Counted from the stretch's first letter, positions 12,172 to 54,566 are shown. The stretch is 64,000 nt of DNA from Bacteroidetes bacterium GWA2_32_17 (GCA_001769035.1 MENF01000066.1:2389-66388), one strand, 5' to 3'. The notes: generated by a model from the sequence alone, not told the origin. Made by a program: numbers and translations.

Positions 12172-12264
12172 TCAATGGAGGTCTTTTGGTTTTCCGGCTC
12201 GGCATTACCCGTCCCGGTCCTAAGGGTATATTCTCAGCCCGTTATATTAAGGCACCCCATTGAG
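12172..12264 (-). ncRNA. TPP riboswitch (variant P4/P5)
   Basis: Minus strand GGGGTGCC..GGGCTGAGAATATACCCTTAGGACC..GGGTAATGCC; CAATGGGG can pair with CTCCATTG; lies upstream of thiS. Confidence 0.88.
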
Positions 12265-12392
12265 CTATCGTTGCAAAGATAAAACCTATTTTATAAATAA
12301 AAAAATATTTTTTTATTTATTTAGATATAACAGGTTTTAAAACCTGTTAATTCTTGTAAATATTTTTTAATTTTGTAAAAAGTATTTCAGAT

Positions 12393-13260: not shown

Positions 13261-14760
13261 TTATTGTTTCACAAATTTTTTAATTTGTGAAACATTTTTT
13301 GAATATATTTTTAACAAATAAATTCCTTTCGGTAAATTTGAAATATCAATGTAAGATTTTTTCCCAATTTCAGAGCAATGTATCTTTTGATTTAAAACAT
13401 TATAAATTTCGACTGTAAATAAACCCGTAGCATTTGTTATTTCAATGTTTAAATTATTTACAGAAGGATTTGGAAAAAGATTTATACTTATCTCATCAAC
13501 AACTGTTTTGGATTTGATATTTGTCGAAAATAATTCACAAAAATTAAATACTTGAGGGGCAAATTGATAAGCTGGGTTTCCATAATGGCTCACTGCTATT
13601 TTAAATACACAATCTTCGGGTATTACCTGAATAAATTGAAGGTTTATATTCTGAACAGATTGTGTTTTCATTATGTTCCAGTTATCAGATGAACCGATGT
13701 TTTGTCCGTTGTAATTTGTGTGAATAACATTACTCACATTCAAATATCGTGAACAATAAATTTGGGCATTGTTTCTTTTCACCATGTCATTGGCAGCATA
13801 TAAATTATCGCCATCAATACTATCGGTATAATTATTATATCGAAAAGTTACATAAGGTTGTTGTGGAGCCAGTTCTGCCACCATGGCAATCAGACTATCG
13901 TAACCCGCTGTTGATGGAGCCAGCGAACATACAATAAAACCGCTTGCATACCCATTGGTATTAGAAGATAATGCGTCGCGAATATCATTAACATTGTGCA
14001 AACCATCGTTATTAAAATCAACTTTTTCTAATCCTTTTCGTATGGCAAGCGTTACTGGTTCGTAGCCTTTGTTTACTAAAGCGGTGAAGCCGTTAACTGT
14101 ATTTAAAAAAGCAGTAACCCCATGAATGTTAAATGCCTGTGAAGCAGCCATCTGTCCGGCAGTACCTGTTAAAATCCATGGTTGTTCGTTAGTTTCAGAG
14201 GGGACATGAATAATTACCACTTGATTGTTGGTAATATTGGTATCTAATGGGCTTGCATCAAGATGATGGGAAATAACTGACTTACCGTTTAAATCTGTTC
14301 CCAAAGTAGCATCGCCCCAATCCATGAGACTGGAACAATTCTGAATAATTTCTTTTTTGGTAATAAATCCCGAAAGGTCAGTAATAAAATTTACAACAAA
14401 TAAATCAAGGTACGAAATTCCGGCAGTATCAATACCTGCATTTGCCATTCCATCTAACATAGCCTTTGCTTCAGTTACATAAATGGTGTCTATAGAAAAA
14501 TTATTTTGATTCCCTATAATTGATTTTGCCAACGGAAGCAGACCTCCAAAGTTAGGAAGAATGTAATTATTATATACAGAAAATATTTTCTGACTACATA
14601 AATATCCATAAGCAAAACCACGTTGGTAATGGGTTCCCCACACTTTTACAACTCTGATATTACCTGTGTCGGAAACTAATTCACCATTTACCGGTTGTGC
14701 ATACACTATACTTAAAGATGATGCAATAACAAAAACAACGATTACAAATATTTTTTTCAT
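13261..14760 (-). CDS. C45/NAAA-like Ntn hydrolase with T9SS C-terminal domain
   Basis: WGTHYQRGFAYGYL, NCSS putative nucleophile, FPNP...GIYLLK...KKFVKQ CTD. Confidence 0.75.
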   Translation of the reverse strand: MKKIFVIVVFVIASSLSIVYAQPVNGELVSDTGNIRVVKVWGTHYQRGFAYGYLCSQKIFSVYNNYILPNFGGLLPLAKSIIGNQNNFSIDTIYVTEAKAMLDGMANAGIDTAGISYLDLFVVNFITDLSGFITKKEIIQNCSSLMDWGDATLGTDLNGKSVISHHLDASPLDTNITNNQVVIIHVPSETNEQPWILTGTAGQMAASQAFNIHGVTAFLNTVNGFTALVNKGYEPVTLAIRKGLEKVDFNNDGLHNVNDIRDALSSNTNGYASGFIVCSLAPSTAGYDSLIAMVAELAPQQPYVTFRYNNYTDSIDGDNLYAANDMVKRNNAQIYCSRYLNVSNVIHTNYNGQNIGSSDNWNIMKTQSVQNINLQFIQVIPEDCVFKIAVSHYGNPAYQFAPQVFNFCELFSTNIKSKTVVDEISINLFPNPSVNNLNIEITNATGLFTVEIYNVLNQKIHCSEIGKKSYIDISNLPKGIYLLKIYSKNVSQIKKFVKQ

Positions 14761-17614: not shown

Positions 17615-17639
17615 TTACAAAACTACATCATTTTATTTT

Positions 17640-17835
17640 TAAAATTTGATTTTTGTGTTTTGGGATTTTAAATTTGAAATTTGGAATTTGGCACTTGGAA
17701 TTTGGCACTGGCTTGGAGCGGTCAGATGGGTTAGGAAATAGACACACAATTTACTACGTACCCATCAGACCGCTTGGAGTTAGTTTGGTATTTGAAATTT
17801 GGAATTTTGCACTTGGAATTTGAGACTTGGAATTT
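17640..17835. repeat. TTGGAAT-type heptamer tract with a nested palindrome
   Basis: Repeated TTGGAAT/TTGAAAT; AGCGGTCAGATGGGT (17717) / ACCCATCAGACCGCT (17760). Confidence 0.75.
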
Positions 17836-17913
17836 ATTTGTTATAAGTAAGGGTAAAATTATTTTTAAGTGTATTAAAAAAAGAATAATTTTGTACTAAC
17901 TAACAATTTAGAT

Positions 17914-19233
17914 ATGAGAAGAAATATATATTTATTGTTTTTTATTTTCATTTCAATTACTTGTTCAGCCCAGTCAAACTATATGGGGAAATTAGGGTAT
18001 GGTGTATCACCTTTGGGGCACCCCGATTTTTCGCAGTTTGGAGCTTTTTTACAGGAAGTTTCAAATACCTGCAACGGTGGAGTTGTTTATGCCAACGGAA
18101 GTTGGAGTGATACAATAACTAAAAGTGGAAATATTCCAAATTTAAACAACATTATTTGCCAGTTGCAACCCTTACCTTATAACTATGTTGATATGGTAAA
18201 TTGTGCATGGGCAACATATCCTCAACTACATTTGGCTGTACCATCAAACCCTACTAATAACTGGACAAATGCTGAAATGAAAAATTTATTTCTTCAAATG
18301 CTTATTAATACTGCCGACTCGCTTCATCCAGCTTATGTTTTTATTGGCAATGAAATAAGCATGTACTGGGAGCAGGATTCGTTGGATTATTTGAATTGGG
18401 TTTCATTTTATAATCAAGCTTATGATTCTATAAAAGTTCATTCGCCAAATTCAAAAGTAGGAACTACTTTTAATTTTGAACATCTTTCGGGAAATGGAAT
18501 TTTAACAGGTTGGAGTACACCATATTGGAATGCCTTTGATATTTTTGATACAAGCAAATTAGATATTATTGGTTTAACAGTTTATCCTTTTTTTAATTAC
18601 CAACATGCTAATGATGTACCTTTAAATTATCTTGACCCGATTTTTTCAAGGATTGGTAATAAGCCAGTTGTTATTGCGGAAACAGGTTGGCCTGGCGATT
18701 CTTTAATTGGCTCATGGTATGCTTCTTCTTTGGAACAAGTTAATTATGTAAATAAAATTTTTAATATAATTTCCGGCAAAAATGTTGAAGTTGTAAACTG
18801 GTTATTTTTAAATTATTGGATGGAACCATCTGACTCCGCTGTTGTAAAACTTTTTAAAAGCGTAGCTTTACGAGATTCTCTCGGAAATGACAGACCGGCA
18901 CTTGCAGAATGGTTATTACATTGTAATAACAATATAGTTAAAGAAAATAATAATTCAGAAGAAATAAGTATTTACCCTAATCCATTCAGCAACTCAACCA
19001 CTTTAGAAATCATTAATAACAAAACACAAAATAATAATTATGATATAACAATATTTGACGTCTTTGGCAAAACTGTTTACCAATCAACCATCAACAAATC
19101 CACTCCCCTCTCCTTTGGAGAGGGGTCGGGGGTGAGGTCAATAATAAATCTTAATTTGCCAAATGGAATTTATTTTTTACAGGTAAAAAGAAATAATTTT
19201 TTACAAACTAAAAAGCTGGAGGTAATAAAATGA
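17914..19233 (+). CDS. Clan GH-A-like glycoside hydrolase domain + T9SS CTD
   Basis: IGNEI and IAETGWP glutamate motifs; YPNP...KKLEVIK CTD. Confidence 0.7.
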   Translation: MRRNIYLLFFIFISITCSAQSNYMGKLGYGVSPLGHPDFSQFGAFLQEVSNTCNGGVVYANGSWSDTITKSGNIPNLNNIICQLQPLPYNYVDMVNCAWATYPQLHLAVPSNPTNNWTNAEMKNLFLQMLINTADSLHPAYVFIGNEISMYWEQDSLDYLNWVSFYNQAYDSIKVHSPNSKVGTTFNFEHLSGNGILTGWSTPYWNAFDIFDTSKLDIIGLTVYPFFNYQHANDVPLNYLDPIFSRIGNKPVVIAETGWPGDSLIGSWYASSLEQVNYVNKIFNIISGKNVEVVNWLFLNYWMEPSDSAVVKLFKSVALRDSLGNDRPALAEWLLHCNNNIVKENNNSEEISIYPNPFSNSTTLEIINNKTQNNNYDITIFDVFGKTVYQSTINKSTPLSFGEGSGVRSIINLNLPNGIYFLQVKRNNFLQTKKLEVIK

Positions 19234-21131
19234 AAATTTATTTATTTATATTAACAATAAGTATAAATATTTTAAATCATGTTTTTGCTCAAACTACTTA
19301 CTATGTTAATGGTAATAATAGCACAGCAAGCGACTATAATTCCGGCACAAGCCCCAGTGCAGCATGGAAGACATTAAGAAGAGCATGCATGGATACTACT
19401 ACTCCTGCTCCAGGTGATACAATTATTATAATGCAAGGTATTTACAGAGCATCACTTATTCCTAAGAAATCCGGCAGCCCAGGCAACTATATTACATTTC
19501 GTTCTGATACTACTTTTAGTACAAAAATAACAGGTATTGTTCTTTTAGATTCAGTTATTGCTGAAGGTGCAATATGGCAACAGGATACTCTTTGGCATCA
19601 GTTGGATACCAGTCTTCACAATGTTTGGAAAATACAATTAGATAGCACTAAACACGGTTATGTTGAAGCATACAGGGATACACAGCGTATGCCTTCCTTT
19701 AAAAGTATAGATGGAGGTGGCAGTCAACTTCCTTTAGATAGTAGTTATATATACCAAAACCATGTATCCTCAGGCAAAAGCTTTGTTTCCGATTCACTTA
19801 ATACACTTTTTGTTTTTCTTGAAGATACTGTAAGTAGCCCTGATATTTATTCATGGTACATCACAAAAAATAATGGAGTTTTTATAAACAACCAATCTTA
19901 TATTAAAATTCAAGGGTTTGAAATTGATTCTTTTGCAGAAGTTGGAGTACTTGTACAAGGATGCAATCATATTGCAATTGATAGTGATTCGATTCACCAT
20001 AACGGAAGAACAGGCATTGCTATAAACTTCACCAATAGCAATATTTTGGTTACAAATAATGATGTTTCGTACAATGGAATCGGACTCGGATATTCTTCTG
20101 GAATTAGTATATTCAGAGCAACAAATTCAAGTTTATACATCATTGGAAATAAATCTCATCATAATGCGGATTCTGCAACTTTTAGTTTTAGTCCTTCAGA
20201 TGGAAATGGATTTATTATTGATGAATCGGCAGATGTTGGACAAAATGGTGGTTGCACTTTTAAAAATAATGTATCCTATTTTAATCAAGGTTCCGGAATA
20301 CGTATTCATCGCAGTAAAAATTGTGAGGTAAAAAATAATACTACATATAAAAATGGTTGTAATGAGATGGATATAGGCGATCAAATAGCACCTGCAACCC
20401 TTGCCGATACTTTAATTTTACTTGATAATATTATTATTGAAAATAATATTTTTTTTGCTAAATCGAACAAATACCCGTTTAGTATGAGTTTTACACATAA
20501 TTTCGGTTCGATTATTTCAAACTTCAATGATTTTTATCGTAATAATGCAATCTCAAATTCTTTGCTTTTTAATATCACTGATTCGTTAAACCTAATGTAC
20601 ATAGGAGTTGACAGTATAAGTCAGTTCCAAAACATAACAGGAAATGATATTAATTCATTTGTTGCCGACCCGTTATTAGACTCTATTCTTCATTTGCAAT
20701 CTATTTCACCATGTATTGATACTGGCAATCCAGATTTATATAATGATGGACAAACATGGATTACAGATACTACCGACCAAGACCCTGACGGAACAAGAAT
20801 GGATATAGGTGCTTACTATTTTTCGCATTCATCAGGAATTGAGGCTAATATTTTACAAAATAATTCTGTAAATGTTTATCCAAATCCATTCAATGAAACA
20901 ACTACACTCGAAATTAGAAACTGGAAAAATCAGAATTACGATTTAAAAATTTATGATGTTTTTGGCAAAATCGTTTACCAATCAACCATCAACAAATCCA
21001 CTCCCCTCTCCTCCGGAGAGGGGTCGGGGGTGAGGTCAGTACTTAATCTTAATTTGCCCAACGGAATTTATCTTTTGCAAATAAAAAGTGATAATTTTGT
21101 ACAAACTAAAAAACTGGAGGTAATAAAATGA
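19230..21131 (+). CDS. Right-handed beta-helix protein + T9SS CTD
   Basis: YYV..ASDYNSGT..WKTL, PGDTI, parallel beta-helix repeats, SPCIDTG, DIGAY. Confidence 0.8.
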   Translation: MKIYLFILTISINILNHVFAQTTYYVNGNNSTASDYNSGTSPSAAWKTLRRACMDTTTPAPGDTIIIMQGIYRASLIPKKSGSPGNYITFRSDTTFSTKITGIVLLDSVIAEGAIWQQDTLWHQLDTSLHNVWKIQLDSTKHGYVEAYRDTQRMPSFKSIDGGGSQLPLDSSYIYQNHVSSGKSFVSDSLNTLFVFLEDTVSSPDIYSWYITKNNGVFINNQSYIKIQGFEIDSFAEVGVLVQGCNHIAIDSDSIHHNGRTGIAINFTNSNILVTNNDVSYNGIGLGYSSGISIFRATNSSLYIIGNKSHHNADSATFSFSPSDGNGFIIDESADVGQNGGCTFKNNVSYFNQGSGIRIHRSKNCEVKNNTTYKNGCNEMDIGDQIAPATLADTLILLDNIIIENNIFFAKSNKYPFSMSFTHNFGSIISNFNDFYRNNAISNSLLFNITDSLNLMYIGVDSISQFQNITGNDINSFVADPLLDSILHLQSISPCIDTGNPDLYNDGQTWITDTTDQDPDGTRMDIGAYYFSHSSGIEANILQNNSVNVYPNPFNETTTLEIRNWKNQNYDLKIYDVFGKIVYQSTINKSTPLSSGEGSGVRSVLNLNLPNGIYLLQIKSDNFVQTKKLEVIK

Positions 21132-22648
21132 AAACAAAAATTATTTTTTTAAACAGCATTTTTTATATTATCAGTAATTTTTCTTTTTCCCAAAACCCTG
21201 GCGATTCCATTTTCTTCTCACCCAATATTCATACTGTAAAAATTTATTTCTCCCAAGCCAATTGGTGGGATTCGCTGGTGATGTATAAACCAATAGATAA
21301 AAAAATGCCTGGCGATGTGGAAATTGACGGAACATATATTAATTCCGTTGGAATTCAGTTTAAAGGGAATTCGTCTTTCAGTAAGGACAGTTTAAAAAAC
21401 TCTTTCAAGATTGACTTCAACGAGTTTGTGAGCGGACAGAAATATGACGGGTTGAAAGTCATCAACCTGAACAATGGTGCCAGTGATCCTACGATGATGC
21501 GTGAAAAAATATTTCTTGATTTCTGCCTTGCAGCAGGCGTTGAAGCACCACGGGCAACATACACTAACCTTTATATCAATGACACACTGTGGGGACTTTA
21601 TACGCTGATAGAACAGGTGAATAAAACATTTTTACAGAATGAATACGGAAACGATGGAGGCAATCTTTTTAAAGGTGACCCATACGGCACACTGGAATGG
21701 TTAGGTAGCAACCCAGCCAATTATTACCACAGCTATGAACTCAAAACCAATGAAACCGAAAACGATTGGACCGACCTTGTGCATCTCACTGACGAAATAA
21801 ATAATACTTCTTCCGTAAATCTTTACGACTCGCTGGAGAATGTTTTAAATACAATTTCGTGGATTGAAGCATGGGCAGCCAATAATATATTCGTAAACCT
21901 TGATTCGTATATGGGTTCAGGGCATAATTATTATGTTTACCACAATACAGCAACGAATAAATTTGATTTTATTATATGGGATGTTAACGGAACGTTCGGA
22001 GCAAATAAACATTTTGGGATGAATATTTCTCAACTTGAAAATCTAAGCATACTTTTCATTCCCCCAAGCCCAAGCATCCGTCCATTAAACAAAAGAATGC
22101 TTCAGGACACGACTTACTTAAATTCTTATATAAACACTGTTTGCAATTATGTGAGCAATTATTATAGCAATGCTTATCTTGACCCGATAATTGATAGTTT
22201 GGCAAACCTTATACGTCCTTATGTTTATGCCGACACTAACAAGTTTTATACAAACCAGCAGTTTGAGGATAACATTAATATAAATGTAACGACAGGAACT
22301 AATGTAATTCCCGGATTAAAATCCCTCATCACTAACCGTAGAATCAGTTTAGCTTCTCAACTGGCGACCTATGGATGTTTATTGGGAGTGAACGATATCA
22401 GCGAAGAGTCGATTTTAGAAATTTATCCTAACCCTTTCAGCGAAACAACCACACTCGAAATTACAAACTGGCAGAATCAGAATTACGATTTAAAAATATA
22501 TGATGTCTTCGGCAAATGTGTTTACCAATCTAAAATCCTTAATCAAAAATCCTTAATCCTAAATCTTAATTTGCCTAATGGAATATATTTTTTGCAAGTA
22601 AAAGGCAATAATTTTATACAAACAAAAAAAATGGAGGTAATAAAATGA
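21128..22648 (+). CDS. CotH kinase family protein + T9SS CTD
   Basis: KGNSS, SFKIDF, MREK, GLYTLIEQV, NLDSY, HNYY, WD. Confidence 0.88.
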   Translation: MKTKIIFLNSIFYIISNFSFSQNPGDSIFFSPNIHTVKIYFSQANWWDSLVMYKPIDKKMPGDVEIDGTYINSVGIQFKGNSSFSKDSLKNSFKIDFNEFVSGQKYDGLKVINLNNGASDPTMMREKIFLDFCLAAGVEAPRATYTNLYINDTLWGLYTLIEQVNKTFLQNEYGNDGGNLFKGDPYGTLEWLGSNPANYYHSYELKTNETENDWTDLVHLTDEINNTSSVNLYDSLENVLNTISWIEAWAANNIFVNLDSYMGSGHNYYVYHNTATNKFDFIIWDVNGTFGANKHFGMNISQLENLSILFIPPSPSIRPLNKRMLQDTTYLNSYINTVCNYVSNYYSNAYLDPIIDSLANLIRPYVYADTNKFYTNQQFEDNININVTTGTNVIPGLKSLITNRRISLASQLATYGCLLGVNDISEESILEIYPNPFSETTTLEITNWQNQNYDLKIYDVFGKCVYQSKILNQKSLILNLNLPNGIYFLQVKGNNFIQTKKMEVIK

Positions 22649-23832
22649 AAAACAAATTCTTTTTTACGGCATTATTCTTTGCAATATTTTGGACGGAAAG
22701 TTTTGCACAATGGATTTCTCAAACTTCCGGGACAATTCAGAATTTAAACTCAATATTTGCGACTACTAATTCCTCAGTTTTTACAGTTGGAACATCGGGA
22801 ACTGGAAGAAAAACATCTGATGGTGGTGCAATTTGGAACACTATGAGTTTAGGTGTTACAACCACGCAATATAGTTTACGATTTATAAATTCAACATCGG
22901 GATTTACAGCGGGTGGCTTTCAGGATATTTTGCAAACATCTAATAGTGGTAGCTCATGGACAAACATAGGTGGTGGAATGACTGATCTGTACGATTGTTA
23001 TTTTACATCTTTCTCTTCAGGATGGGTTGTTGGTGATATTGAAGTAGGATATGGGTTTCTCTACAATCCTTTCACTTTTAATTTAATTCAGATATCCGCC
23101 AATGCGAACAAAGTGTTACGAGGAATTTATTTTGCAAACAGTACAATAGGTTGGGTACTAGGTGATGGTGGATTAATAATTAAAACCATTAATAGCGGCA
23201 CAAATTGGACGCAACAAACATCCGGTACAACAAATCAATTAAATAAAATAATGTTCATAGATGCAAATAATGGAATCGTTGTTGGTAATACCGGAACCAT
23301 TTTGAAAACAATTAACGGAGGAACAAACTGGACTTTATCAACCAGCGGTACAACACTAAACTTAAATGCACTTTATTATGCAGATGCATTAAATATCTGG
23401 ACTTGTGGTGATAACGGAATAATACTTAAAAGTATAGACGGAGGGCTAACATGGTTTATTGAAACATCAGGAACAATAGAAAATCTAAACGCAATTCACG
23501 GTATAGGAATAACAGATATTTGGGCTTGCGGAAATAATGGGACAATTATTTATCATTCAGGAACTACTTCTGTTTTTGAAAATCAATTACAAACAAATAT
23601 TTCTGTTTACCCCAATCCCACAAACGGAGATTTGCGAATTACAATTAATGATAAATGGTTAAAAAATGCAGAACTGAAGATTTTTGATGCCTTCGGCAAA
23701 AATGTTTACCAATCAAAAATCCTTAATCTTAAATCCTTAATCCTAAATCTTAATTTGCCCAACGGAATTTATTTTTTACAAGTAAAAGGCAATAATTTTT
23801 TACAAACTAAAAAACTGGAGGTAATAAAATGA
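22645..23832 (+). CDS. YCF48/BNR beta-propeller protein + T9SS CTD
   Basis: Repeated G.ILKTxxGGxxW units. Confidence 0.85.
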   Translation: MKNKFFFTALFFAIFWTESFAQWISQTSGTIQNLNSIFATTNSSVFTVGTSGTGRKTSDGGAIWNTMSLGVTTTQYSLRFINSTSGFTAGGFQDILQTSNSGSSWTNIGGGMTDLYDCYFTSFSSGWVVGDIEVGYGFLYNPFTFNLIQISANANKVLRGIYFANSTIGWVLGDGGLIIKTINSGTNWTQQTSGTTNQLNKIMFIDANNGIVVGNTGTILKTINGGTNWTLSTSGTTLNLNALYYADALNIWTCGDNGIILKSIDGGLTWFIETSGTIENLNAIHGIGITDIWACGNNGTIIYHSGTTSVFENQLQTNISVYPNPTNGDLRITINDKWLKNAELKIFDAFGKNVYQSKILNLKSLILNLNLPNGIYFLQVKGNNFLQTKKLEVIK

Positions 23833-25322
23833 ATAAAAAAACTTTTACACTGATTATTCTCATTCAATTATTTGTTGCCAATTCTTTCGGGCAACTTTGG
23901 TATCTCACGCGCGGACTTTCTACCGATGAATTAGCATGGGCAGTTGATGCAGATAGTACCGGAAATATCTATTGGGCAATAGAAGAAAAAAATCAGTTCC
24001 CTTATTGGTATTACAACATCATCCTTTTTAAAATTGCACCTGACGCACAGCAAATATGGCAAAGTACACCCTTTGGCTCAATATATAACGACATTGCATT
24101 TAAAACCACAGTTCATGGCTCCAGTGTCTATCTTTCAGGTAGAACCGATTCGACAGGTGCAAATAGTTCCGCCGATGGTCTTGTGCTTAGCTACAATACC
24201 AGCAATGCAGCGTTGAATTGGCAATATATCTATAGTCCTATTCCAGATTATGGCTACGAAGAAATTGACGGATTAAATGTTCAGCCCGATGGTATCTATC
24301 TCTCCGGCTGGACAAAAGGAAATACAACCGACGAAGATGTACTCCTTCAAAAAATATCACTTTCAGGTCAGCATATTTGGACAAACTATTGGGATTATGA
24401 TGGAATAGGGGCATTTGATGGTGCAAACGGACATATGGCAATGGATAACAATTTTTTGTATGTCGGTGCTCATGTCAATTTATTCGATGGCTCACTTGCT
24501 TGTTTCAGCCGCAACAATGGAGCTTATCAATGGGATGTAACATGGAGCAATTCAAACAATGACGAAGTGCTTGGACTAACAATGAGTGCCGATTCTATGC
24601 TCTATACAGTAGGTTATTATTGTCCGCCAGGTAATTCGCAAACTTGTATTAAAAAATTTACACGTGCAGGACAGCTTAAGTGGTCACACATCTGGGGCGG
24701 AACAGGGACTGAAGATGCTCGAACAATTGTTACCGATGGTGATAGCATAATATATGTAATTGGTACAACATCCAGTTATGGTAATGGTGGCAAAGATATT
24801 TTTGTATTGAAGTACGATACAACAGGAATATTAAACGATTCTATTATTTGGGGTGGTGCTTTTGACGAAGTATCTCATGATGCTGTTATGGTTGGTGATT
24901 ACATTTATATCACGGGCGAAACACAAAGCTTTGGAAATGGTCAAACAAATAGCGATCATATAGAAGATGGATTACTATTAAAAATAAATGGCAGAACCAT
25001 GCAATCGCCAGATTCAACGATGACAAATGTTACTACATTTTTTTTCAATGAACAAAGTGCAGTGAAAATTTACCCCAACCCATTCAGCCAATCTACCACA
25101 CTCGAAATTACAAACGCACAAAACCAGAAATACGATTTAAATATTTATGATGTCTTCGGCAAAACCGTTTACCAATCAATCATCAATAAATCCACTCCCC
25201 TCTCCTCCGGAGAGGGAAAGCCTGTCTTGAGCGAAGTCGAAAGAGGGGTGAAGTCAATCCTAAATCTTAATTTGCCCAATGGAATTTATTTTTTACAAAT
25301 AAAATCAGATAATTTTGCTTAA
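23829..25322 (+). CDS. SBBP-like beta-propeller protein with a truncated T9SS CTD
   Basis: Propeller repeats (WGGTGTED, DIFVLKYD); CTD ends DNFA* followed in frame by TKKLEIIK*. Confidence 0.8.
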   Translation: MNKKTFTLIILIQLFVANSFGQLWYLTRGLSTDELAWAVDADSTGNIYWAIEEKNQFPYWYYNIILFKIAPDAQQIWQSTPFGSIYNDIAFKTTVHGSSVYLSGRTDSTGANSSADGLVLSYNTSNAALNWQYIYSPIPDYGYEEIDGLNVQPDGIYLSGWTKGNTTDEDVLLQKISLSGQHIWTNYWDYDGIGAFDGANGHMAMDNNFLYVGAHVNLFDGSLACFSRNNGAYQWDVTWSNSNNDEVLGLTMSADSMLYTVGYYCPPGNSQTCIKKFTRAGQLKWSHIWGGTGTEDARTIVTDGDSIIYVIGTTSSYGNGGKDIFVLKYDTTGILNDSIIWGGAFDEVSHDAVMVGDYIYITGETQSFGNGQTNSDHIEDGLLLKINGRTMQSPDSTMTNVTTFFFNEQSAVKIYPNPFSQSTTLEITNAQNQKYDLNIYDVFGKTVYQSIINKSTPLSSGEGKPVLSEVERGVKSILNLNLPNGIYFLQIKSDNFA

Positions 25323-25345
25323 ACTAAAAAATTAGAAATAATTAA

Positions 25346-28300
25346 ATGACAAATAAAATATTACATATTGTTATTTTAATTTTTATTTCGCTACAATCAT
25401 TCTCGCAAATTGTTATAAACGAAGTATCGAGTGCCACTTATTCTAAATTTTTAGATGAAGATAACTCACAGGAAGATTGGCTCGAATTTTATAATACTAA
25501 TCCAAGTGCTATTAATTTACAGGGTTATCAAATAGTACGTGATGAAGCCGGAAAAATAAAGACATGGACATTTCCTAATATTATTATCAAAGGTAATTCA
25601 TATTTAACTGTATTTTGTTCCGAAAAAAACCGGACAACATGGTTCGACCACTGGGAAGTTCCTGTATATGCTAATAATGATTGGAAATATTTTCCTGGTA
25701 CAAGCGAACCGCCATTCAATTGGCGTACTTTAACATTTAACGATGGTTCATGGAGCAATGGTATTGGCGGGATTGGTTTTGGCGACAGCGATGATAGTAC
25801 TATTATATTACAGGTTCCTTCTCTTTATATGCGAAAAACATTTACTATTGCCGACACATCAAAAATTGCTATTGGAGCGTTGTTAATAGATTTTGACGAT
25901 GCTTTTGTTGCATATTTGAATGATGTTGAAATTGCTCGTTCAAATATCGGTATTTATGGCGACCACCCAACATTTAATACGCTTGCTTATGATGAACATG
26001 AGGCACAAATGTATCAGAACGGTAATTTTTCGGGTGGTTTTTGGATACCGGAAAATGTTATTGATGCAGCTATTAAACCCGGCTTAAATGTTTTTTCAAT
26101 TCAAACGCATAATTATATTGACGGGATGGACGATTTATCGTGTATTCCTTATTTATTAATTGGAGTTAGTGATACTACAATTACATATTATCCATTTCCG
26201 GCAATTGTCCATTTACATACTAATTTTAATTTAACTAACACCGGGCAAACTTTAACTTTAAAAAATTCAGCAGGAAATATTCTCGATTCACAAGTAATTG
26301 GCTATACCGAAATGAATCATTCACGTGGAAGAATTCCCGATGGCTCAAATAATTGGTGCATATTAAATAAACCAACACCCGATTCTACAAATAATAATTC
26401 AAATTGTTTTTTGGGATACGAAAGCCCTCCTGATTTTAATTTAGCTCCCGGATTTTACTCGTCATCAAAGCAATTAACAATTAATGGAAATTCTTCTTCT
26501 GTAATCCACTATTCCGATAATGGAAGTATTCCTGTTTCCGGTTCACCGGTTTATAATAATCTTATAACAATAAGCACAACAAAAGTTTTTCGTGCAAGGA
26601 ATTTTTCTACAAATCCTGCAATTCTGCCAAGTTCTGTAACAACTAACACATATTTTATTAATGAAAATATTTCTTTACCCGTTGTATCATTAAGTACAAA
26701 TTCCGATTATCTTTTTGACTGGAATTATGGAATTTATGTTTTGGGACCCAATGCTGACCTTTCGGCACCTCCTTTTTTTGGTGCAAACTTCTGGCAGGGA
26801 TGGTCCCGTCCTGCTCATATCGAATTTTTTGATAACAATCACAAACAAGCATTTGAACTGAATGCTGAAATTAAAATGCAGGGTAACTGGTCAAAAACAT
26901 TTCCTCAAAGAGGATTCTCAATTAAGGCAAAAGACGATTATGGCGGTTACCCGATTTCTTATAAATTATTTCCCGATAAACAAGTTACAGAATATAAAAG
27001 TTTTAACATACGTGCTGCAGGTAACGACTGGAATAGATGCCATTTTCGCGACCGCTTAAATCAAAAAACGGTACAGCTATTAACACATCTTGATATAATG
27101 GACGGAAGAGCGTGCGTTCTTTTTATTAACGGAATATACTGGGGCGTTTATGAGCTTCGTGAAAAGCAGGATAAATTTTATATTGCCAATAATAATAATG
27201 TTGACCAGGATAAAATAGATTTTCTTGAATTTGATGGCTCTGTAATTGAAGGTACCAATAAAGGTTTCCTTGATATGGTTGGCTTTATAAAAAATAACAA
27301 TATGTCGGATATTGCAAATTACGATTCTGTTAACAAAATGCTTGATATAGAAAATTTCGCCGATTATTTTATTGTTGAAACTTATATTGTAAATATTGAC
27401 TGGTTAGGTTCTTATACTAATAACATTAAATACTGGAGAACAAATAATCCTGCAGGAAAATGGCGTTATGTGCTATGGGATACAGATTTAACTCTTGGAC
27501 TTGGCAGTCCCGATACAACCAATATGCTTGAGCGTGCAATCAATCCTCCAACCAGCAATCCTCATTCGGTTATGCTTAAATCATTATTGAATAATACAGA
27601 GTTTAAAAACTATTTTGTTGACAGATATTGTGATTTGCTCAACACTATTTACCGTCCATATAAATTCAAAAAGAAAGCCGAAGCTCTGCACGATGTTATG
27701 TTACCCGAAATGGCAAGACATTTTGTGTTATGGGGAAATTTTGATTCATTACCTTTCCCATGGTCTTTATACTATCCTTACTTAGGATTGGCACCAGATA
27801 TTCCATACTGGGAAGCAAATATTGATACAATGAAAATGTTTATTGACAGTCGCCCTTTTTATGCTTTTAATCAAATTCAAAATCAATTTTCTTTATTAAA
27901 GCAGGTTAACATTACGTTAAATATTTCGCCTGCCGGAGCCGGTATTATTAAGCTTAACACAATATATCCCGATTCTTTGCCTTGGTCGGGTACATATTTC
28001 GACGGAGTTCCCATTACAATGTCTATAATTCCTAATCAGGGTTATAGATTTTTATATTGGAAATCACCAATAATTATTCAAACTCCTATAACAAATAATA
28101 CTTTAACAGTTAATGTAACAAATAACGAAGAATTTACAGCATTTTTTAAAGCAACAGATTATATTTTTGATGTGTATCCAAATCCTTTTGTTGATGAGTT
28201 TATTGTAAATTATGAAATTCCAGAAGAAAAGCAGGTCTCGTTGAAATTGTATGATGTTGTTGGTCGGGAAGTAATGGAATTAATTTCAAACAATGATTTT

Positions 28301-28429
28301 CAACAAACTGGTAATTATTCAATAACAATTGACACAAGAAAATATTCTTTATCAGATGGAATTTATTTTATTAAATTTACCACTTCTGATTTTTCTAAAA
28401 TGATAAAATTAGTTAAGACACAATTATAA
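25346..28429 (+). CDS. Lamin-tail domain + CotH kinase + T9SS CTD protein
   Basis: IVINEV, DWLEFY, YWGVYELREK, NIDW, KWRYVLWDTD, YPNP CTD. Confidence 0.85.
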   Translation: MTNKILHIVILIFISLQSFSQIVINEVSSATYSKFLDEDNSQEDWLEFYNTNPSAINLQGYQIVRDEAGKIKTWTFPNIIIKGNSYLTVFCSEKNRTTWFDHWEVPVYANNDWKYFPGTSEPPFNWRTLTFNDGSWSNGIGGIGFGDSDDSTIILQVPSLYMRKTFTIADTSKIAIGALLIDFDDAFVAYLNDVEIARSNIGIYGDHPTFNTLAYDEHEAQMYQNGNFSGGFWIPENVIDAAIKPGLNVFSIQTHNYIDGMDDLSCIPYLLIGVSDTTITYYPFPAIVHLHTNFNLTNTGQTLTLKNSAGNILDSQVIGYTEMNHSRGRIPDGSNNWCILNKPTPDSTNNNSNCFLGYESPPDFNLAPGFYSSSKQLTINGNSSSVIHYSDNGSIPVSGSPVYNNLITISTTKVFRARNFSTNPAILPSSVTTNTYFINENISLPVVSLSTNSDYLFDWNYGIYVLGPNADLSAPPFFGANFWQGWSRPAHIEFFDNNHKQAFELNAEIKMQGNWSKTFPQRGFSIKAKDDYGGYPISYKLFPDKQVTEYKSFNIRAAGNDWNRCHFRDRLNQKTVQLLTHLDIMDGRACVLFINGIYWGVYELREKQDKFYIANNNNVDQDKIDFLEFDGSVIEGTNKGFLDMVGFIKNNNMSDIANYDSVNKMLDIENFADYFIVETYIVNIDWLGSYTNNIKYWRTNNPAGKWRYVLWDTDLTLGLGSPDTTNMLERAINPPTSNPHSVMLKSLLNNTEFKNYFVDRYCDLLNTIYRPYKFKKKAEALHDVMLPEMARHFVLWGNFDSLPFPWSLYYPYLGLAPDIPYWEANIDTMKMFIDSRPFYAFNQIQNQFSLLKQVNITLNISPAGAGIIKLNTIYPDSLPWSGTYFDGVPITMSIIPNQGYRFLYWKSPIIIQTPITNNTLTVNVTNNEEFTAFFKATDYIFDVYPNPFVDEFIVNYEIPEEKQVSLKLYDVVGREVMELISNNDFQQTGNYSITIDTRKYSLSDGIYFIKFTTSDFSKMIKLVKTQL

Positions 28430-28559
28430 AATACAAAGCATTTTTATTAACAATATAATCTGATAAATTTAAAATTCATTTTTTGAATTCTAAAAACTTC
28501 ATTAAGCATAGTGTATCAAATTAGAAAAAATATGTATCTTTGTTTTATCAAAAAAATAA

Positions 28560-28787
28560 ACGCTCATCAATAAACATAAAACAATGAATTCTGACAACCG
28601 TATGACAATGAATGACTACTGAATGGCAATTGTATGACAATGAATGACTATTGAATGACAACTGTATGCTCACGAACTATAAACTCGAAACATTAAACTT
28701 TTTTTGAACAATAAACATAGAACAATAAACATAGAACAATGAACATAGAACAGTGAACAATTAACTTTTTTAAAACATTTTTAAACA
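28560..28787. repeat. Short tandem repeats upstream of the porP-like gene
   Basis: GTATGACAATGAATGACTA twice with ~32-bp period; AACAATA/AACATAG heptamers. Confidence 0.7.
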
Positions 28788-29819
28788 ATGAACAATAAAC
28801 TTTTTCAAACAGCAATTGGAGTTTTTCTAATTCCGGCTTCAATATTTGGGCAGGATATTTTATTTTCTCAGCCCAACGAAGCACCACTTATATTAAATCC
28901 CGCAAATGCAGGAATACCATACAGTATGCGTGTAACAGCAAACTATCGTTCGCAATGGCGAAGCGTAACAACACCGTTTAGTACAATTGCTGCAGGCGTT
29001 GATGGTAAAATTCTATCACAGGGGACAAAAGGTTCGTCGCTTGGTGTAGGATTAATCCTTTTTAATGACCAAGCTGGTAGTGGTCATCTTACTACAAATC
29101 AAATAAATTTGTGTGTTTCAGGAAAAGTCACCATTGCAAAATATCAGGCACTTTCGGTTGGGCTTTCTGGCGGAATTATACAAAGACGAATTGGTACAGA
29201 CAATTTAACATGGGGAGAACAATACAACGGTATTGCTTACGATCCAACCAGACTTTCAGGTGAAAGTTTTTCGGGCGATAATTTTTTAAACGGTGATTTT
29301 GGAACCGGAATACAATGGAGCTACGGAAAAGGACAAAGTACACTTTCATCAAACGACCAGTTTGGAGCACAAACTGGAATTTCAGTTTCTCATGTAAATA
29401 GTCCAAGTACAGGATTTTATCAGGTTGTTGATAAACGAGCCATTCGCTATTTATTCCATTTTAGTTGTTCTTACGGTATTAAAAACACTAATATGCAAAT
29501 TTCACCATTGTTCTTGTATGAAAGACAAGGCCCTGCACAAATGATTTATGGAGGAACATTTATTAAATACAAATTGCAGGAATCGTCGAAATATACCGAT
29601 AACATGCTATCAAAATCTATAAGTATTGGTGGCTTTTTTAGAAGCGGAGATGCTGCTGTTATTGCAGCCCAATGCGAACTCGGGCAAATAGGATTTGGTA
29701 TAAGTTACGATATTAATATTTCATCTTTAACAAACGTAAGTTCAGGCCACGGAGGTTTCGAAATTTCGTTAAAATACTTGCCAATTATTAAGTCATCTGC
29801 TCCAAATAGACTGCTTTAA
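28788..29819 (+). CDS. PorP/SprF family T9SS membrane protein
   Basis: QDILFSQ, LNPANAG, NYRSQW, GISYD, GGFEISL. Confidence 0.92.
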   Translation: MNNKLFQTAIGVFLIPASIFGQDILFSQPNEAPLILNPANAGIPYSMRVTANYRSQWRSVTTPFSTIAAGVDGKILSQGTKGSSLGVGLILFNDQAGSGHLTTNQINLCVSGKVTIAKYQALSVGLSGGIIQRRIGTDNLTWGEQYNGIAYDPTRLSGESFSGDNFLNGDFGTGIQWSYGKGQSTLSSNDQFGAQTGISVSHVNSPSTGFYQVVDKRAIRYLFHFSCSYGIKNTNMQISPLFLYERQGPAQMIYGGTFIKYKLQESSKYTDNMLSKSISIGGFFRSGDAAVIAAQCELGQIGFGISYDINISSLTNVSSGHGGFEISLKYLPIIKSSAPNRLL

Positions 29820-30045: not shown

Positions 30046-32229
30046 ATGAAATTTATACCTTTATTTGTTTTATTATTTTTGCAATTTACAATTTTTGGTT
30101 ATTCCCAAAATGACACAATTTCAAAGCCTAATAAAGTAAAAACAAATAAACATAAGAAAAAAAGCAATCAAACACAATGGTCTTTTAAGGTGATTACCTT
30201 TTCTTCTCAATTTAGCAATAAAGAGAAATCGGCTAACCAGATTTTAGGAAAACCGAACGTACTTCCAATAGGAGGTTTATCTCCATGTGCATGGGCGGTA
30301 TCAAAAGATTACGATAAAACAAAGCCGACATCTATAAGAGTTGCTTTTGAAAAACCTGTTAAAGCAACACAAGTAGCAGTTGCCGAGAGCTATAAAGCTG
30401 GAGCAATCGAAAAAATAGTTTTATATGGAAACGACAATCAGGAAAAAATAGTTTATCAAAATGACCCTAAATTAATAGATATAAACTCAAGAATGTTGAA
30501 TGTTTTTTTTGAACCAACCCCCTTTGATGTAATTGAAGGAGAATTATTCCTGCAACCCAAAAAAGTATCTGATTTTGAAATTGATGCTTTTGGTATATCA
30601 GGCAATACCGATACTATTAAAGCATGTGTAAATGTGGCATTAACCATGAAATTTTCTTTTAGCAAAGAATCGTTAGGCCCTGCTATTAATACAAAACTCG
30701 ATGAAGTTGCACCCATAATTTCATCTGATGTAAAAACATTATATTTTGATAGAAAAAATTCTCCCGGAAATGTAGGGGGTGTGGATGATGAGGATGATAT
30801 TTGGTTTTCAAAAGCAGACACAAATGGGAATTGGTTGCCTGCTGTAAATATTGGCTCACCATTAAATAATAAATATAATAATTTTGTTCAATCAATTACT
30901 CCCGACGGAAATACCTTATTAATTGGAAATGTTTATAATTTAGATGGTGGTATGGCACCAGGTGCTTCTATTTCGAACAGAACAAAAGATGGATGGTCAT
31001 TCCCTGAAAAACAAAATATCAAAAATTTTAAAAATGATAATCAATTTGTAAATTACTTTTTAACAAATGACAATAAATTTTTATTAATCGCAATGGAAAA
31101 TAGTAGCAGCTACGGGGGACTAGATTTATATGTCAGTTTCAGAATCAGCGAAAATAATTGGTCTGAACCTCAAAATCTGGGAGTTGTTGTTAATACTGCT
31201 GCCAATGATTATAGTCCATTTTTAGCATCAGATGGCGTTACTCTATATTATTCAACATCAGGCATCAGTGGCTATGGTAAAGAAGATGTTTTTATGACCC
31301 GCCGCCTTGATGATTCATGGTTAAACTGGTCTGAACCGCAAAATCTTGGTAATGAATTTAACACAAAAGGGTCTGAAACTAAATTTACAATACCCGCATC
31401 AGGTGAACATATTTACTTTTCATCAACAGAAAATTCGATAGGACTTAATGATTTTTTTAGAATAAAACTACCCGAAGAAGTACAACCAGTTGACATAACA
31501 ATTCATAATGTAGAAATAGGAAATACTAAATTTGCATATAATGCTGTTCCTTTTAAATCGTCTTTTGATAGTTTAAAAGGGGTGGTTCGAAATGATTTGA
31601 ATGAAAAAAATATTAATAAAGCAACTTTATATTTAATAGATACTCTTACCGGAGACACTATTGCATATTCAACTACCAATGATAACGGCAAATTTGAAAT
31701 GACCGTACCTAAAAGAGACGATGAATCTATTGACGAAAGAGATTTACAACTTGTTATTGTAGGCGATGGTTATGAAAAGAAGGTAATTAATATAGACGCT
31801 CAATATTTTGAATCGGAATATCTGATTATTGGCAATGTTGATACAAAAATGAAAGTTGAAATGAAAATTGAAAAAGTTATAGAATTTCATAATATTTACT
31901 TCGATTATGGAAAGGCTGAATTAAACCAAAATTCTATATCTGTATTAGATAAAATAGTGCAAATTATGAATGAAAATAAAAAAATGGTTATTGAATTAAG
32001 CGCTCATACAGACTGCCAGTCGAGTTCCGATTTTAACCTTAATCTTTCTCAAAAAAGAGCAACTAATGCAAAAAACTATATTATTTCAAATGGGATAAGT
32101 CAGGATAGAATTGTTGCCAAAGGTTATGGTAAAACACATCTCCTTACTCATTGTAATTGCCTTACATGTACCGAAGATGAACATGCACTTAACAGGAGAA
32201 TTGAAGTTAAAATTTTAAAAATGCAATAA
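30046..32229 (+). CDS. OmpA-family protein with PD40 repeats (PorE-like)
   Basis: PD40/WD40-like repeats; C-terminal NIYFDYGK, ELSAHTD, LSQKRA, NRRIE. Confidence 0.85.
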   Translation: MKFIPLFVLLFLQFTIFGYSQNDTISKPNKVKTNKHKKKSNQTQWSFKVITFSSQFSNKEKSANQILGKPNVLPIGGLSPCAWAVSKDYDKTKPTSIRVAFEKPVKATQVAVAESYKAGAIEKIVLYGNDNQEKIVYQNDPKLIDINSRMLNVFFEPTPFDVIEGELFLQPKKVSDFEIDAFGISGNTDTIKACVNVALTMKFSFSKESLGPAINTKLDEVAPIISSDVKTLYFDRKNSPGNVGGVDDEDDIWFSKADTNGNWLPAVNIGSPLNNKYNNFVQSITPDGNTLLIGNVYNLDGGMAPGASISNRTKDGWSFPEKQNIKNFKNDNQFVNYFLTNDNKFLLIAMENSSSYGGLDLYVSFRISENNWSEPQNLGVVVNTAANDYSPFLASDGVTLYYSTSGISGYGKEDVFMTRRLDDSWLNWSEPQNLGNEFNTKGSETKFTIPASGEHIYFSSTENSIGLNDFFRIKLPEEVQPVDITIHNVEIGNTKFAYNAVPFKSSFDSLKGVVRNDLNEKNINKATLYLIDTLTGDTIAYSTTNDNGKFEMTVPKRDDESIDERDLQLVIVGDGYEKKVINIDAQYFESEYLIIGNVDTKMKVEMKIEKVIEFHNIYFDYGKAELNQNSISVLDKIVQIMNENKKMVIELSAHTDCQSSSDFNLNLSQKRATNAKNYIISNGISQDRIVAKGYGKTHLLTHCNCLTCTEDEHALNRRIEVKILKMQ

Positions 32230-52164: not shown

Positions 52165-52635
52165 TTGTTTTCATTATGTAAAACAAATAACTTATTATCA
52201 ATAATAATAATTTTAAAAATGAAAAAAATGAAAAACAAAAAATTTTTTCGCAAAAACATTTTAACGTCAATATTATTGACATTATTAATGGTTTCATTTG
52301 GTACCGCTTATTCACAATGTGGCGGAGGGCATAATCATAGTAAAAGCAGTTCAACAAAAAGTGTTGATAACAATGATGTAAATGCAATAAAAGATAGTAC
52401 AAAAACATATACCTGCTCAATGCACTCCGAAGTAATTTCCGACAAACCGGGTAAATGTCCAAAATGTGGAATGGAATTGATTTTAAAAAATTCAGAATCA
52501 ACTCAAAATATGAATTTGGGTTGTATGGGTATGATGCATGGCGAAAAAGGAAAACATAAGGGAATGATGTACGTTGCAGGCGGTGTAATTATGGTGGCTA
52601 TGATGACGGTATTTATGTTCTTAAGAATTAATTAA
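52165..52635 (+). CDS. Heavy-metal-binding-domain protein with Met-rich region and C-terminal TM helix
   Basis: YTCSMHSEV...GKCPKCGMEL; real start probably ~52219. Confidence 0.82.
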   Translation: MFSLCKTNNLLSIIIILKMKKMKNKKFFRKNILTSILLTLLMVSFGTAYSQCGGGHNHSKSSSTKSVDNNDVNAIKDSTKTYTCSMHSEVISDKPGKCPKCGMELILKNSESTQNMNLGCMGMMHGEKGKHKGMMYVAGGVIMVAMMTVFMFLRIN

Positions 52636-52673
52636 TTTATTTTTAAACTAAATTCACAAAAAAAAATAATATT

Positions 52674-53150
52674 ATGGTAAACACATTTCATCCTTTGTTT
52701 GTGCATTTCCCTATAGCATTATTAATTGTTTCGGGAATTATTGCACTTATTGATTTGCTAAAAGGCAATGAGCAATTAAAAAAAATAATATTATGGAATT
52801 TAATATTTGCATTAATAAGTTTTATTTTTACTATTAGTTCAGGTTTCTTTGATGCAAACGCAATTCCGCATAACGAAACTATACATAAAATAATGGAAGT
52901 TCACGAAAAAATCGGCATATTGTTATTTGCAATAACTTTCATTTTAACAATGTGGCTCATAATAAGAATTTCAAAAATGACTAAATTAGAAAACTTATTA
53001 TTTGTAATTTTACTTTGGTTCGCAATGGCTTTGGTTAGCTATAATGGTTACCTTGGTGGTAAAATGGTTTACGAAAATGGTGCCGGTATAAAGCCAATGC
53101 AAAATTCCTTTATATTACAGGAAGCCGAAAAGCACGAACATGAGCATTAA
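52674..53150 (+). CDS. DUF2231 membrane protein
   Basis: HPLFVHFPIAL, GYLGGKMVY. Confidence 0.88.
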   Translation: MVNTFHPLFVHFPIALLIVSGIIALIDLLKGNEQLKKIILWNLIFALISFIFTISSGFFDANAIPHNETIHKIMEVHEKIGILLFAITFILTMWLIIRISKMTKLENLLFVILLWFAMALVSYNGYLGGKMVYENGAGIKPMQNSFILQEAEKHEHEH

Positions 53151-53167
53151 ATAATAAATTAACAATA

Positions 53168-53208
53168 ACCTCAAAGTCCTCTCCTTTGGAGAGGATTTAG
53201 GTGAGGTC
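53168..53208. repeat. Intergenic CCTCTCCTTTGGAGAGG REP
   Basis: Same family as the in-frame inserts at 19102, 21000 and 25194. Confidence 0.85.
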
Positions 53209-53225
53209 AATAAAAAAAATAAAAA

Positions 53226-53612: not shown

Positions 53613-53624
53613 ATTTTTAAAATC

Positions 53625-53888: not shown

Positions 53889-53972
53889 ATGTAATTATTT
53901 AATTGTAACTATTCAAAGTAATATTACTAATATTATAACAATGAGTAGTTACAATTATTAAAAAAAAATATT

Positions 53973-54560: not shown

Positions 54561-54566
54561 AATAAA

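Follow-up and report, generated by a model that had tools for sequence, protein, structure and literature searches.

The sets of cargo proteins exported by the type IX secretion system (T9SS) differ greatly among Bacteroidota, and how new cargo gains a compatible sorting signal is unsettled. We analysed a stretch of 64,000 nucleotides (nt) from Bacteroidetes bacterium GWA2_32_17 (GCA_001769035.1, MENF01000066.1:2389-66388), hereafter called the window, in which consecutive T9SS cargo genes with unrelated passengers end in a common module coding for their C-terminal domain (CTD). The closest known case is that of the KLIKK proteases of Tannerella forsythia (Ksiazek et al. 2015, PMC4404884). According to passages of that paper, six genes in two clusters encode proteases of unrelated catalytic classes, all carrying a nearly identical CTD of ~86 residues with a basic end; the array is absent from the closest relative, and the authors proposed that pre-existing genes had been fused to common signal and C-terminal segments. 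The two loci are alike in having clustered cargo genes, unrelated passengers and one lineage-specific CTD family (here in five genes). They differ in that the CTDs of the window share 54-78% protein identity, rather than being nearly identical, and end in KLEVIK instead of KLIKK. The KLIKK passengers, as described in those passages, are proteases with a conserved region A and a variable region B before the CTD, whereas here they are glycan-related or propeller proteins, and no peptidase domain was found in the array genes. Each KLIKK gene is preceded by a potempin lipoprotein gene, as stated in part of another paper (PMC9890683), whereas no small lipoprotein genes lie between the genes of the present array. 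The KLIKK genes are not linked through ATGA overlaps, and PMC4404884 found no Shine-Dalgarno (SD) sequence for them, while the genes in the window have both ATGA overlaps and a GGAGG motif. The passages of that paper considered here give no comparative evidence for conversion or shuffling.

Homologous recombination between modules of T9SS cargo has been described for the gingipains and HagA of Porphyromonas gingivalis (Dashper et al. 2017, PMC5266723), where, in the parts of the study that concern us, domain rearrangement and allelic exchange give rise to a combinatorial modularity incongruent with strain phylogeny. What recombines in that single species is a set of adhesin domains in genes that are dispersed, the CTD being just conserved; in the window, the tail coding for the CTD, together with the junction to the next gene, is the common repeat and the genes are in tandem. 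No account of concerted evolution or conversion affecting T9SS CTDs turned up in full-text searches of a limited literature collection. The array also resembles integron cassette arrays, since its genes are co-oriented and without evident promoters of their own, with recombination-prone ends and variable content and order, but no IntI and no attC-type sites at the gene boundaries were found, the repeat is coding, the end-points of exchange vary and all the products are fusion proteins. In Rhs/CdiA orphan-module arrays, and in the concerted evolution of tandem paralogues, a conserved repeat of neighbouring genes mediates RecA-type swapping of the variable parts. In Rhs/CdiA loci a variable C-terminal toxin follows the conserved part, whereas in the present array it is the N-terminal part that varies, and conservation extends over the C-terminal secretion signal and the start of the next gene. 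The junctions themselves recall termination-reinitiation, in which the overlap is 4 nt long and the upstream gene has an SD-like motif within its 3' end (Huber et al. 2019, PMC6728339). In the parts of that survey used here, the Bacteroidetes are the sole group with essentially no SD use at overlaps (under 10%), and four GGAGG motifs in a row would be atypical in that respect.

We consider it likely that the window, from an uncultured Bacteroidota lineage of low G+C content, holds a chromosomal, operon-like array of T9SS cargo genes, presumably co-transcribed, in which the 3' halves of the CTD modules recombine homologously without any dedicated recombinase. The evidence, presented below, is at the level of the sequence: passengers and CTD tails move separately, the tails of a genome become homogenised, and it is in the tails that genes have been gained, lost or reordered. 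This would provide a simple recombinational route for remodelling the secretome, with every product staying secretion-competent.

A CTD module shared by neighbouring genes with unrelated passengers

Six co-oriented genes on the + strand (17914-28429; Table 1) each carry a T9SS type-A CTD, and PF18962 (Por_Secre_tail) scores above its curated cut-off in all six (38-48 bits, for a cut-off of 27). The passengers are mutually unrelated, those of genes 1-4 being of four Pfam-distinct kinds and that of gene 5 matching no family (its orthologues give weak PQQ_2 propeller matches). The six translations all start in a manner resembling a signal peptide, with a short basic stretch followed by a hydrophobic run ending in AQ, SQ or GQ. 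An earlier reading of the window, made from the sequence only, had described five consecutive genes with unrelated passengers. These five open reading frames (ORFs) were confirmed, all with PF18962 and with unrelated passengers, but a sixth member adjoins them, with a divergent CTD that has 44-47% DNA identity to modules 1-5. The proposal that the module acts as a secretion tag agrees with the family membership of all six CTDs, and with the presence of PorP/SprF and PD40 + OmpA genes next door; the products are, on this basis, predicted to be secreted. In an AlphaFold2 (AF2) model of the gene 1 product, whose mean predicted local distance difference test (pLDDT) score is 64.8 overall and ~60-86 in the CTD, seven strands are found in residues 350-437.

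The CTDs of genes 1-5 (10 pairs) were compared with the remaining 68 CTD pairs of the window, formed with gene 6 and seven further PF18962 genes dispersed over the window. DNA identity is 66-83% and protein identity 54-78% among genes 1-5, whereas the other pairs have 41-55% and at most 41%, respectively, so the statement that other CTDs in the window are far more divergent stands. A repeat search within the window also returned a 5-copy family of 126 nt, 77-81% identical to its reference and far above chance. The original observation is nevertheless overstated: the shared family is real, and the module endings had been quoted exactly, letter for letter, but "near-identical" does not describe five modules which, when aligned at the nucleotide level, reach 80-92% identity only in the last 93 nt (54-82% in the 5' 135 nt). 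The two halves do not always agree. Module 4 is of a different 5' subtype, yet its 3' 93 nt are 92% identical to those of module 3, and the tail of module 1 is closest to that of module 4 (90%), though an insert described below groups modules 1, 2 and 5.

A search with the CTD of gene 2 found 10 proteins. When a profile built from four CTDs of the window was run against 1.84 billion representatives, 41257 matches, to CTDs in general, passed E<=1e-3; of these, 106 reached E<=1e-10 and a single one E<=1e-30. Among the best-listed matches not retrieved by the earlier searches, a QTKK-type tail is present in 1 of 148. The module thus appears, from these searches, to be rare and lineage-specific.

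The junctions between genes 1 and 2, 2 and 3, 3 and 4, and 4 and 5 are 4-nt ATGA stop/start overlaps. The sequence-only reading had extended this arrangement to the end of gene 5, placed at 25349, where the ATGA is ancestral only: the real stop is a TAA at 25320-25322, at a position where the other four modules have CAA. The last nine codons are lost, TKKLEIIK and the ATGA that follows can be read in the ancestral frame only, and gene 6 starts 23 nt past the real stop. The extreme C-terminus is intact in genes 1-4 and 6, but not in gene 5. Since a conserved C-terminal motif of the CTD is required for T9SS function (according to parts of PMC11285876), the product of gene 5, having lost its last nine CTD residues by a nonsense mutation, is probably no longer secreted.

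Histories of CTDs and passengers

A scan of genome contigs yielded 75 loci, with the source genome not among them, and the nearest ones (L001 to L005, L019 and L027) are contigs of Bacteroidales or Bacteroidota metagenome-assembled genomes (MAGs). Orthologues of the passengers of genes 1, 3 and 5 (g1, g3 and g5) were found in the nearest loci at 62-84% identity (blastp); those of g1 in L001, L004 and L005 are 69-84% identical in the passenger, and that of g3 in L005 is 82% identical. The ortholog groups were fixed before any tree was built, and trees were made from CTD protein sequences (28 rows) and from the DNA of the last 93 nt. On the protein tree, approximately unbiased (AU) tests rejected a single clade for the CTDs of the g1 orthologues (p 1.2e-4; 2.1e-5 with the core set) as well as for those of the g5 orthologues (p 6.5e-5; 2e-4 with the core set), and on the 93-nt DNA tree the same two clades were rejected with p 1.7e-5 and 8.7e-4. 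A single clade of the five window tails was not rejected (p 0.49), and the trio of tails from L001 forms a clade with support 90/92. Genome labels require five changes on the 93-nt tree, for a minimum of four and a shuffled mean of 9.1, and none of 200 shuffles was as low. Congruent CTD and passenger trees had been named beforehand as the outcome that would speak against the sequence-only reading; the trees are incongruent (AU tests, p 1e-3 to 2e-5).

Synonymous divergence (pS) between paralogous tails of the same genome is 0.27-0.54 in the window and 0.26-0.46 in L001, while orthologous tails of different genomes differ by 0.55-0.79, and the g1 passengers of the window and L001 by 0.51. For the window and L001 together, the mean pS of tails is 0.37 within and 0.47 between genomes, the true labelling being the most extreme of 56; this is a modest effect, resting on 31 codons only and on tails that have a codon bias in common. 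On the 93-nt tree, paralogous tails are more alike than orthologous ones, which is the feature of concerted evolution. The passengers tell a different story from the CTDs in single families as well. The nine closest passenger relatives of gene 4 share 59-81% passenger identity with it, yet their CTDs match that of gene 4 at no more than background level (31-38%); between gene 4 and its neighbour gene 3, which is unrelated to it, CTD identity is 68%. Some relatives in the g1 family bear other CTD types, and there are CTD-less forms of ~355 residues.

Gene order in related loci

The order in the window is g1-g2-g3-g4-g5-g6. It is g1'-X(LVIVD)-g5' in L001, g5'-g1'-Y in L004 and Z-g3'-g1'-W in L005, while in L002 an array of four genes ends with g5', which is solitary in L019 and L027. 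A comparison with related genomes had been suggested as a check, and in L001, L004 and L005 the orthologous passengers do indeed differ in their order and in the genes that accompany them. The same ATGA junction joins the genes of these relatives wherever the module tail is present. X, Y and W are LVIVD proteins that follow g1' in three loci; they are not clearly orthologous, X and W having 27% identity over 139 residues and Y having no match.

Two further observations were made in these loci. In L001 (3973-4066), the ATGA overlap persists after the terminal gene of the array and opens a 31-codon ORF, which is not signal-peptide-like and may be the remnant of a lost downstream gene. In L019 (1161-2654), the orthologue of the g5 passenger has a different CTD and stands alone between two molybdopterin-dehydrogenase subunit genes, overlapping both, which is an odd location for a secreted propeller protein.

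Mosaic CTDs, a relic upstream of gene 1 and a palindromic insert

Mosaic CTDs are seen in pairs of closely related proteins. Between P0008 and L001_X, identity is 98% both for the passenger and for the final 37 residues, but 36 of the 53 residues at positions 389-441 differ, whereas outside this tract 5 of 424 do (Fisher 1e-35). P0002 and g1 share 94% identity, with 7 differences in the last 21 residues and 19 in the other 418 (Fisher 7e-5), and the fragment P0240 joins a CTD 5' half of g1 type to a long insert of g5 type. The exchanged segments have sharp boundaries, and their end-points vary. As P0002, P0008 and P0240 all come from short metagenomic contigs, assembly chimeras are conceivable, and such an artefact could in principle extend to the arrays, if the repeats had caused chimeric joins; the window itself comes from a metagenomic contig, the longest one given for its proteins having 69594 nt, and the mosaic partners lie on contigs of 1.5-3 kb. 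We regard this as very improbable. The repeats, at 80-92% identity over 93 nt, contain no long exact stretches, four further MAG contigs have comparable arrays from independent assemblies, and the P0008 mosaic has its 5' breakpoint within sequence specific to the passenger, where there is no repeat to jump across.

Directly upstream of gene 1 lies a decayed relic of the 3' tail of the module (Table 1). When it is aligned with the consensus of modules 1-5, 57 of 75 columns agree (76%), there are insertions of 2 and 28 nt, and the start codon of gene 1 is located, relative to it, near the position of the internal start codons. A score with loose gaps did not discriminate (63.3 for the relic and 62.9 for the next-best A+T-rich upstream region) and was replaced by a strict local score. 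The strict score of the relic, 39, was reached by 3 of 2652 control windows outside the array; all three overlap, and they correspond to the genuine CTD tail of the gene at 13261-14760. The relic implies that a CTD-bearing gene once preceded gene 1 and was lost by a break inside the module, or that gene 1 arrived together with its upstream junction. The 8-mer TAATTTTG occurs in the relic (17886-17893) and in the tails of modules 2 (21089-21096) and 5 (25306-25313), where it encodes Asn-Phe-Val/Ala; we take it to fit the -7 promoter consensus of Bacteroides, TAnnTTTG, and such 8-mers are common by chance in A+T-rich DNA.

Modules 1, 2 and 5 carry, at one identical site, an in-frame G+C-rich palindromic insert that modules 3 and 4 do not have (Table 1). 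A G-rich segment follows the palindrome, and the predicted hairpin has an energy of -22 to -24 kcal/mol (-22.3 for the gene 1 copy). The AF2 model of gene 1, of low confidence, places insert residues 397-404 in a low-confidence loop (394-404) between two strands, with the last insert residues, 405-408, modelled in the next strand. Closely similar hairpins, together with the same following G-rich segment, were found in unannotated sequence of a Prevotella record and on a Hymenobacter plasmid, between the genes for ATP synthase subunit A and subunit C; the longer insert of gene 5 had no plasmid match, and the palindrome pattern was absent from all 75 related loci. We infer that the insert is a copy of a dispersed Bacteroidota hairpin repeat, which landed in frame in one CTD and spread by conversion to two others, in which case the CTD loop tolerates an insertion of 12-20 residues derived from such a repeat. 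At the same site, modules 3 and 4 (22527-22570 and 23717-23754) have a 7-nt or 14-nt tandem repeat, with unit AATCCTT and ~5 copies, that encodes part of the CTD.

A hairpin of this strength in three of the five modules, in co-oriented and seemingly promoter-less genes whose content varies between relatives, could suggest an integron-like system, in which a recombinase encoded elsewhere would act on a site in the module such as the G+C-rich palindrome. We find this scarcely credible. This palindrome is the sole strong one, and it is located ~100 nt inside the coding sequence of the CTD rather than at a gene boundary, which does not agree with an attC site. It is missing from modules 3 and 4 and from every related locus, and the end-points of exchange vary, as they do in homologous exchange. 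The sequence-only reading had noted that no integrase was in view, and this was borne out by the search for integrase, transposase and recombinase families, which found none among 39 ORFs of the window, and, for related loci, none among 19 flank ORFs and the array genes of six loci (the scanned flanks including those of L002, L003, L004, L019 and L027). Nothing here indicates site-specific recombination.

Homologous exchange or an ordinary operon

The modules are direct repeats ~1.2-1.9 kb apart, and as such they would act as substrates for homologous recombination, presumably of the RecA type rather than site-specific. Gene conversion between the copies would homogenise the tails within a genome and make mosaic CTDs, while unequal exchange would delete, duplicate or re-join units consisting of the junction, a passenger and the 5' half of a CTD, always in frame. 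The outcome over time would be the same passengers in other orders, and with other neighbours and CTDs, in related genomes. The sequence-only reading had called the module a recombination joint, through which passengers would be captured, shuffled or deleted as in a cassette array. Gene orders, AU tests, grouping of tails, mosaics and relic all speak for the joint, but as a site of homologous exchange and conversion and not as part of an integron-like cassette system, and nothing shows that it has been selected for shuffling.

Several results weigh against the recombination of CTD tails, or limit its extent. The modules are not near-identical and their synonymous divergence is substantial (pS 0.37-0.56 over the whole CTD); with values of 0.27-0.56 between modules, homogenisation must be slow or old. 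The whole-CTD protein tree clusters weakly by genome, with 18 changes for a shuffled mean of 20.2 (9 of 200 shuffles were as low), and the window group requires 5 changes on it, for a shuffled mean of 5.6; this weak clustering fits mosaic CTDs, whose halves have different histories. The pS between tails within L004 (0.51-0.56) is no lower than that between genomes, the g1' of L005 bears a non-module CTD, and no relic of the module was found upstream of the first array gene in L002, L003, L004, L005 or L027. Furthermore, the compared genomes are very diverged (passenger pS 0.46-0.75) and the contexts differ: related arrays are flanked by unrelated housekeeping genes, without mobile-element genes, and the FKBP, DUF2148, PorP and PD40 + OmpA genes that flank the array in the window had no match in the nine loci compared. 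Given such divergence and such unrelated contexts, ordinary rearrangement over long times contributes to the differences in gene order. Finally, CTDs are not interchangeable between species, as reported in part of PMC11285876, and genome-specific CTD features could reflect co-adaptation to the T9SS of each host.

Several of these points would suit an ordinary T9SS cargo operon, in which the CTDs resemble each other by common descent, through old duplication or domain accretion, under purifying selection and co-adaptation, with generic rearrangement and no role for the module in recombination. The module identity of only 66-83% is also in keeping with it. We judge this explanation unlikely, though it retains some weight. 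It leaves unexplained the sharp replaced segments in orthologues that are otherwise 94-99% identical, the genome-specific synonymous signatures of the tails, the presence of the same 36-nt insert at the same site in three of the five modules, the exact ATGA junctions kept in differing gene orders, and the relic before gene 1. Co-adaptation in particular can account for amino-acid patterns, but not for discrete mosaics, a common insert or a relic. Homologous recombination between the 3' halves of the modules remains the reading that we favour.

The GGAGG motif at the overlaps

GGAGG is found 7 nt before the ATG at four junctions, within codons for Leu/Met-Glu-Val (CTG or ATG, GAG, GTA). It precedes 4 of the 40 ORF starts in the window, all four within the array, and neither GGAG, GAGG nor AGGA was found in positions -20 to -1 of the other 36. 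The SD-like site pointed out in the sequence-only reading, as a signal that Bacteroidota rarely use, is thus present, and its rarity agrees with the <10% of overlapping Bacteroidetes gene pairs given in the relevant part of PMC6728339. That reading also saw the module as a translational coupler, which is a more difficult question. The codons involved are rare: Glu is encoded by GAG in 14.5% of cases, and Leu by CTG in 5.8%. DNA is available for 14 module tails, a small sample that is not phylogenetically independent. In 11 of them a real gene overlaps the end of the tail, and 9 of these use GAG, as against none of the 3 terminal ones (Fisher 0.027).

The account towards which we lean is that GGAGG is a passive by-product, made of the Leu-Glu-Val codons of the last CTD strand and inherited or converted along with them, and that any re-initiation is SD-independent. 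Besides the low frequency of SD use in the phylum, even at overlaps, ribosomes of Bacteroidia are reported to sequester their anti-SD and to be "blind" to the SD, responding to strong SDs only if they are without bS21, and work on Flavobacterium johnsoniae speaks against general SD use (both according to passages of PMC9976891 and PMC13000453). The overlaps of g5' with g1' in L004 and of gene c with g5' in L002 have no GGAGG, and the four copies in the window are not independent. On the other hand, the rare CTG and GAG persist in tails whose other synonymous sites have diverged, GAG is kept in most coupled tails but in no terminal one, and the tail of gene 5, now untranslated, has drifted to TTA GAA. 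From the sequences, it is possible, if rather doubtful, that GGAGG aids re-initiation at the ATGA overlap. The overlaps, then, are real, and a role as coupler is suggested by the choice of codons, but it is in doubt in view of the small sample and the published SD-blind ribosomes of Bacteroidia. The locus is in any case a natural test case of whether an SD-like motif can matter at overlaps in a phylum that normally ignores the SD.

A more far-reaching proposal would be that the CTD 3' half, ATGA and GGAGG together are a selected multi-purpose joint, serving as export signal, re-initiation site (perhaps for a subpopulation of ribosomes without bS21) and recombination handle, and permitting the in-frame capture, reordering, deletion and exchange of secreted enzymes across loci and genomes. 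We hold this to be improbable. If true, the secretome would have in this array a counterpart of gene cassettes that needs no integrase.

Genomic context and other features of the window

The coordinates of the array, its modules and its neighbours are given in Table 1. The window has a G+C content of ~25-38%. Upstream of the array are an FKBP gene on the opposite strand and a thiamine operon, and directly downstream are the PorP/SprF-family gene and a PD40 + OmpA gene whose product may be PorE-like. The core T9SS genes porK/L/M/N and sov were not found within the 64 kb.

Table 1 Features of the T9SS cargo array and its downstream neighbours (positions in the window)
Feature	Position	Strand	Description
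Relic of module 3' tail	17812..17913	+	decayed; directly upstream of gene 1
Gene 1 (g1)	17914..19233	+	GH53-like passenger, PF07745 (E 2.5e-9); PF18962 (E 7.4e-10); CTD module 18967-19233
Insert, gene 1	19102..19137	+	36 nt, 12 codons, in-frame, G+C-rich, palindromic, in the CTD
Junction 1/2	19216..19233	+	Leu-Glu-Val-Ile-Lys-stop codons containing GGAGG, then ATGA stop/start overlap
Gene 2 (g2)	19230..21131	+	right-handed beta-helix, PF13229 (E 1.1e-13); PF18962 (E 2.4e-11); CTD module 20871-21131
Insert, gene 2	21000-21035	+	palindromic
Junction of gene 2	21114-21131	+	end of module 2
Gene 3 (g3)	21128..22648	+	CotH passenger, PF08757 (E 2e-61); CTD module 22418-22648, without insert
Junction of gene 3	22631-22648	+	end of module 3
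Gene 4 (g4)	22645..23832	+	BNR/Ycf48-like propeller; CTD module 23602-23832, without insert
Junction of gene 4	23815-23832	+	end of module 4
Gene 5 (g5)	23829..25322	+	passenger without Pfam family; shortened CTD, premature TAA 25320-25322
Module 5	25065..25349	+	includes untranslated ancestral tail 25323-25349; GGAGG decayed to AGAAA
Insert, gene 5	25194-25253	+	60 nt, palindromic, including a further nested 24 nt
Gene 6 (g6)	25346..28429	+	LTD, CotH and accessory domains; divergent CTD 28169-28429; last array member
PorP/SprF-family T9SS membrane protein	28788..29819	+	PF11751 (E 2.8e-33)
PD40 + OmpA protein	30046..32229	+	PF00691 and PF07676

A scan of the window for sigma-70 promoters and terminators was uninformative, with 55 promoter-like sites where 63 were expected and 10 terminator-like ones where 7.4 were expected; the palindromic inserts, on the minus strand, account for three of the latter. 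In the promoter region of gene 1 (17631-17849), 14-nt tandem repeats form two blocks, TTGGAATTTGGCAC x2.1 and TTGGAATTTGAAAC x3.6, and between the TTGGAATTTGGCAC and TTGGAATTTGAAAC blocks lies a 15-bp inverted repeat, 93% complementary (17717-17731 and 17760-17774), for which Rfam gave nothing but chance hits of hairpins to microRNA models. Tandem repeats (28552-28765) also fill the spacer of 358 nt that separates gene 6 from the PorP/SprF gene, with a 32-nt unit (x2.4, 28592-28668) and a 14-nt unit (x3.4, 28706-28752).

No Rfam family matched at its gathering threshold within the window, which is without an rRNA gene. A full-length match to the thiamine pyrophosphate (TPP) riboswitch at 12174-12269 on the minus strand, below threshold (31.8 bits, for a gathering threshold of 54.3; E 3.9e-4), is located upstream of the thiamine operon, which is led by thiC. 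At 52165-63037 the window carries a heavy-metal efflux cluster, with an AcrB-type pump, an outer-membrane factor, an HlyD/CusB-type fusion protein and three proteins with a small HMBD metal-binding domain.

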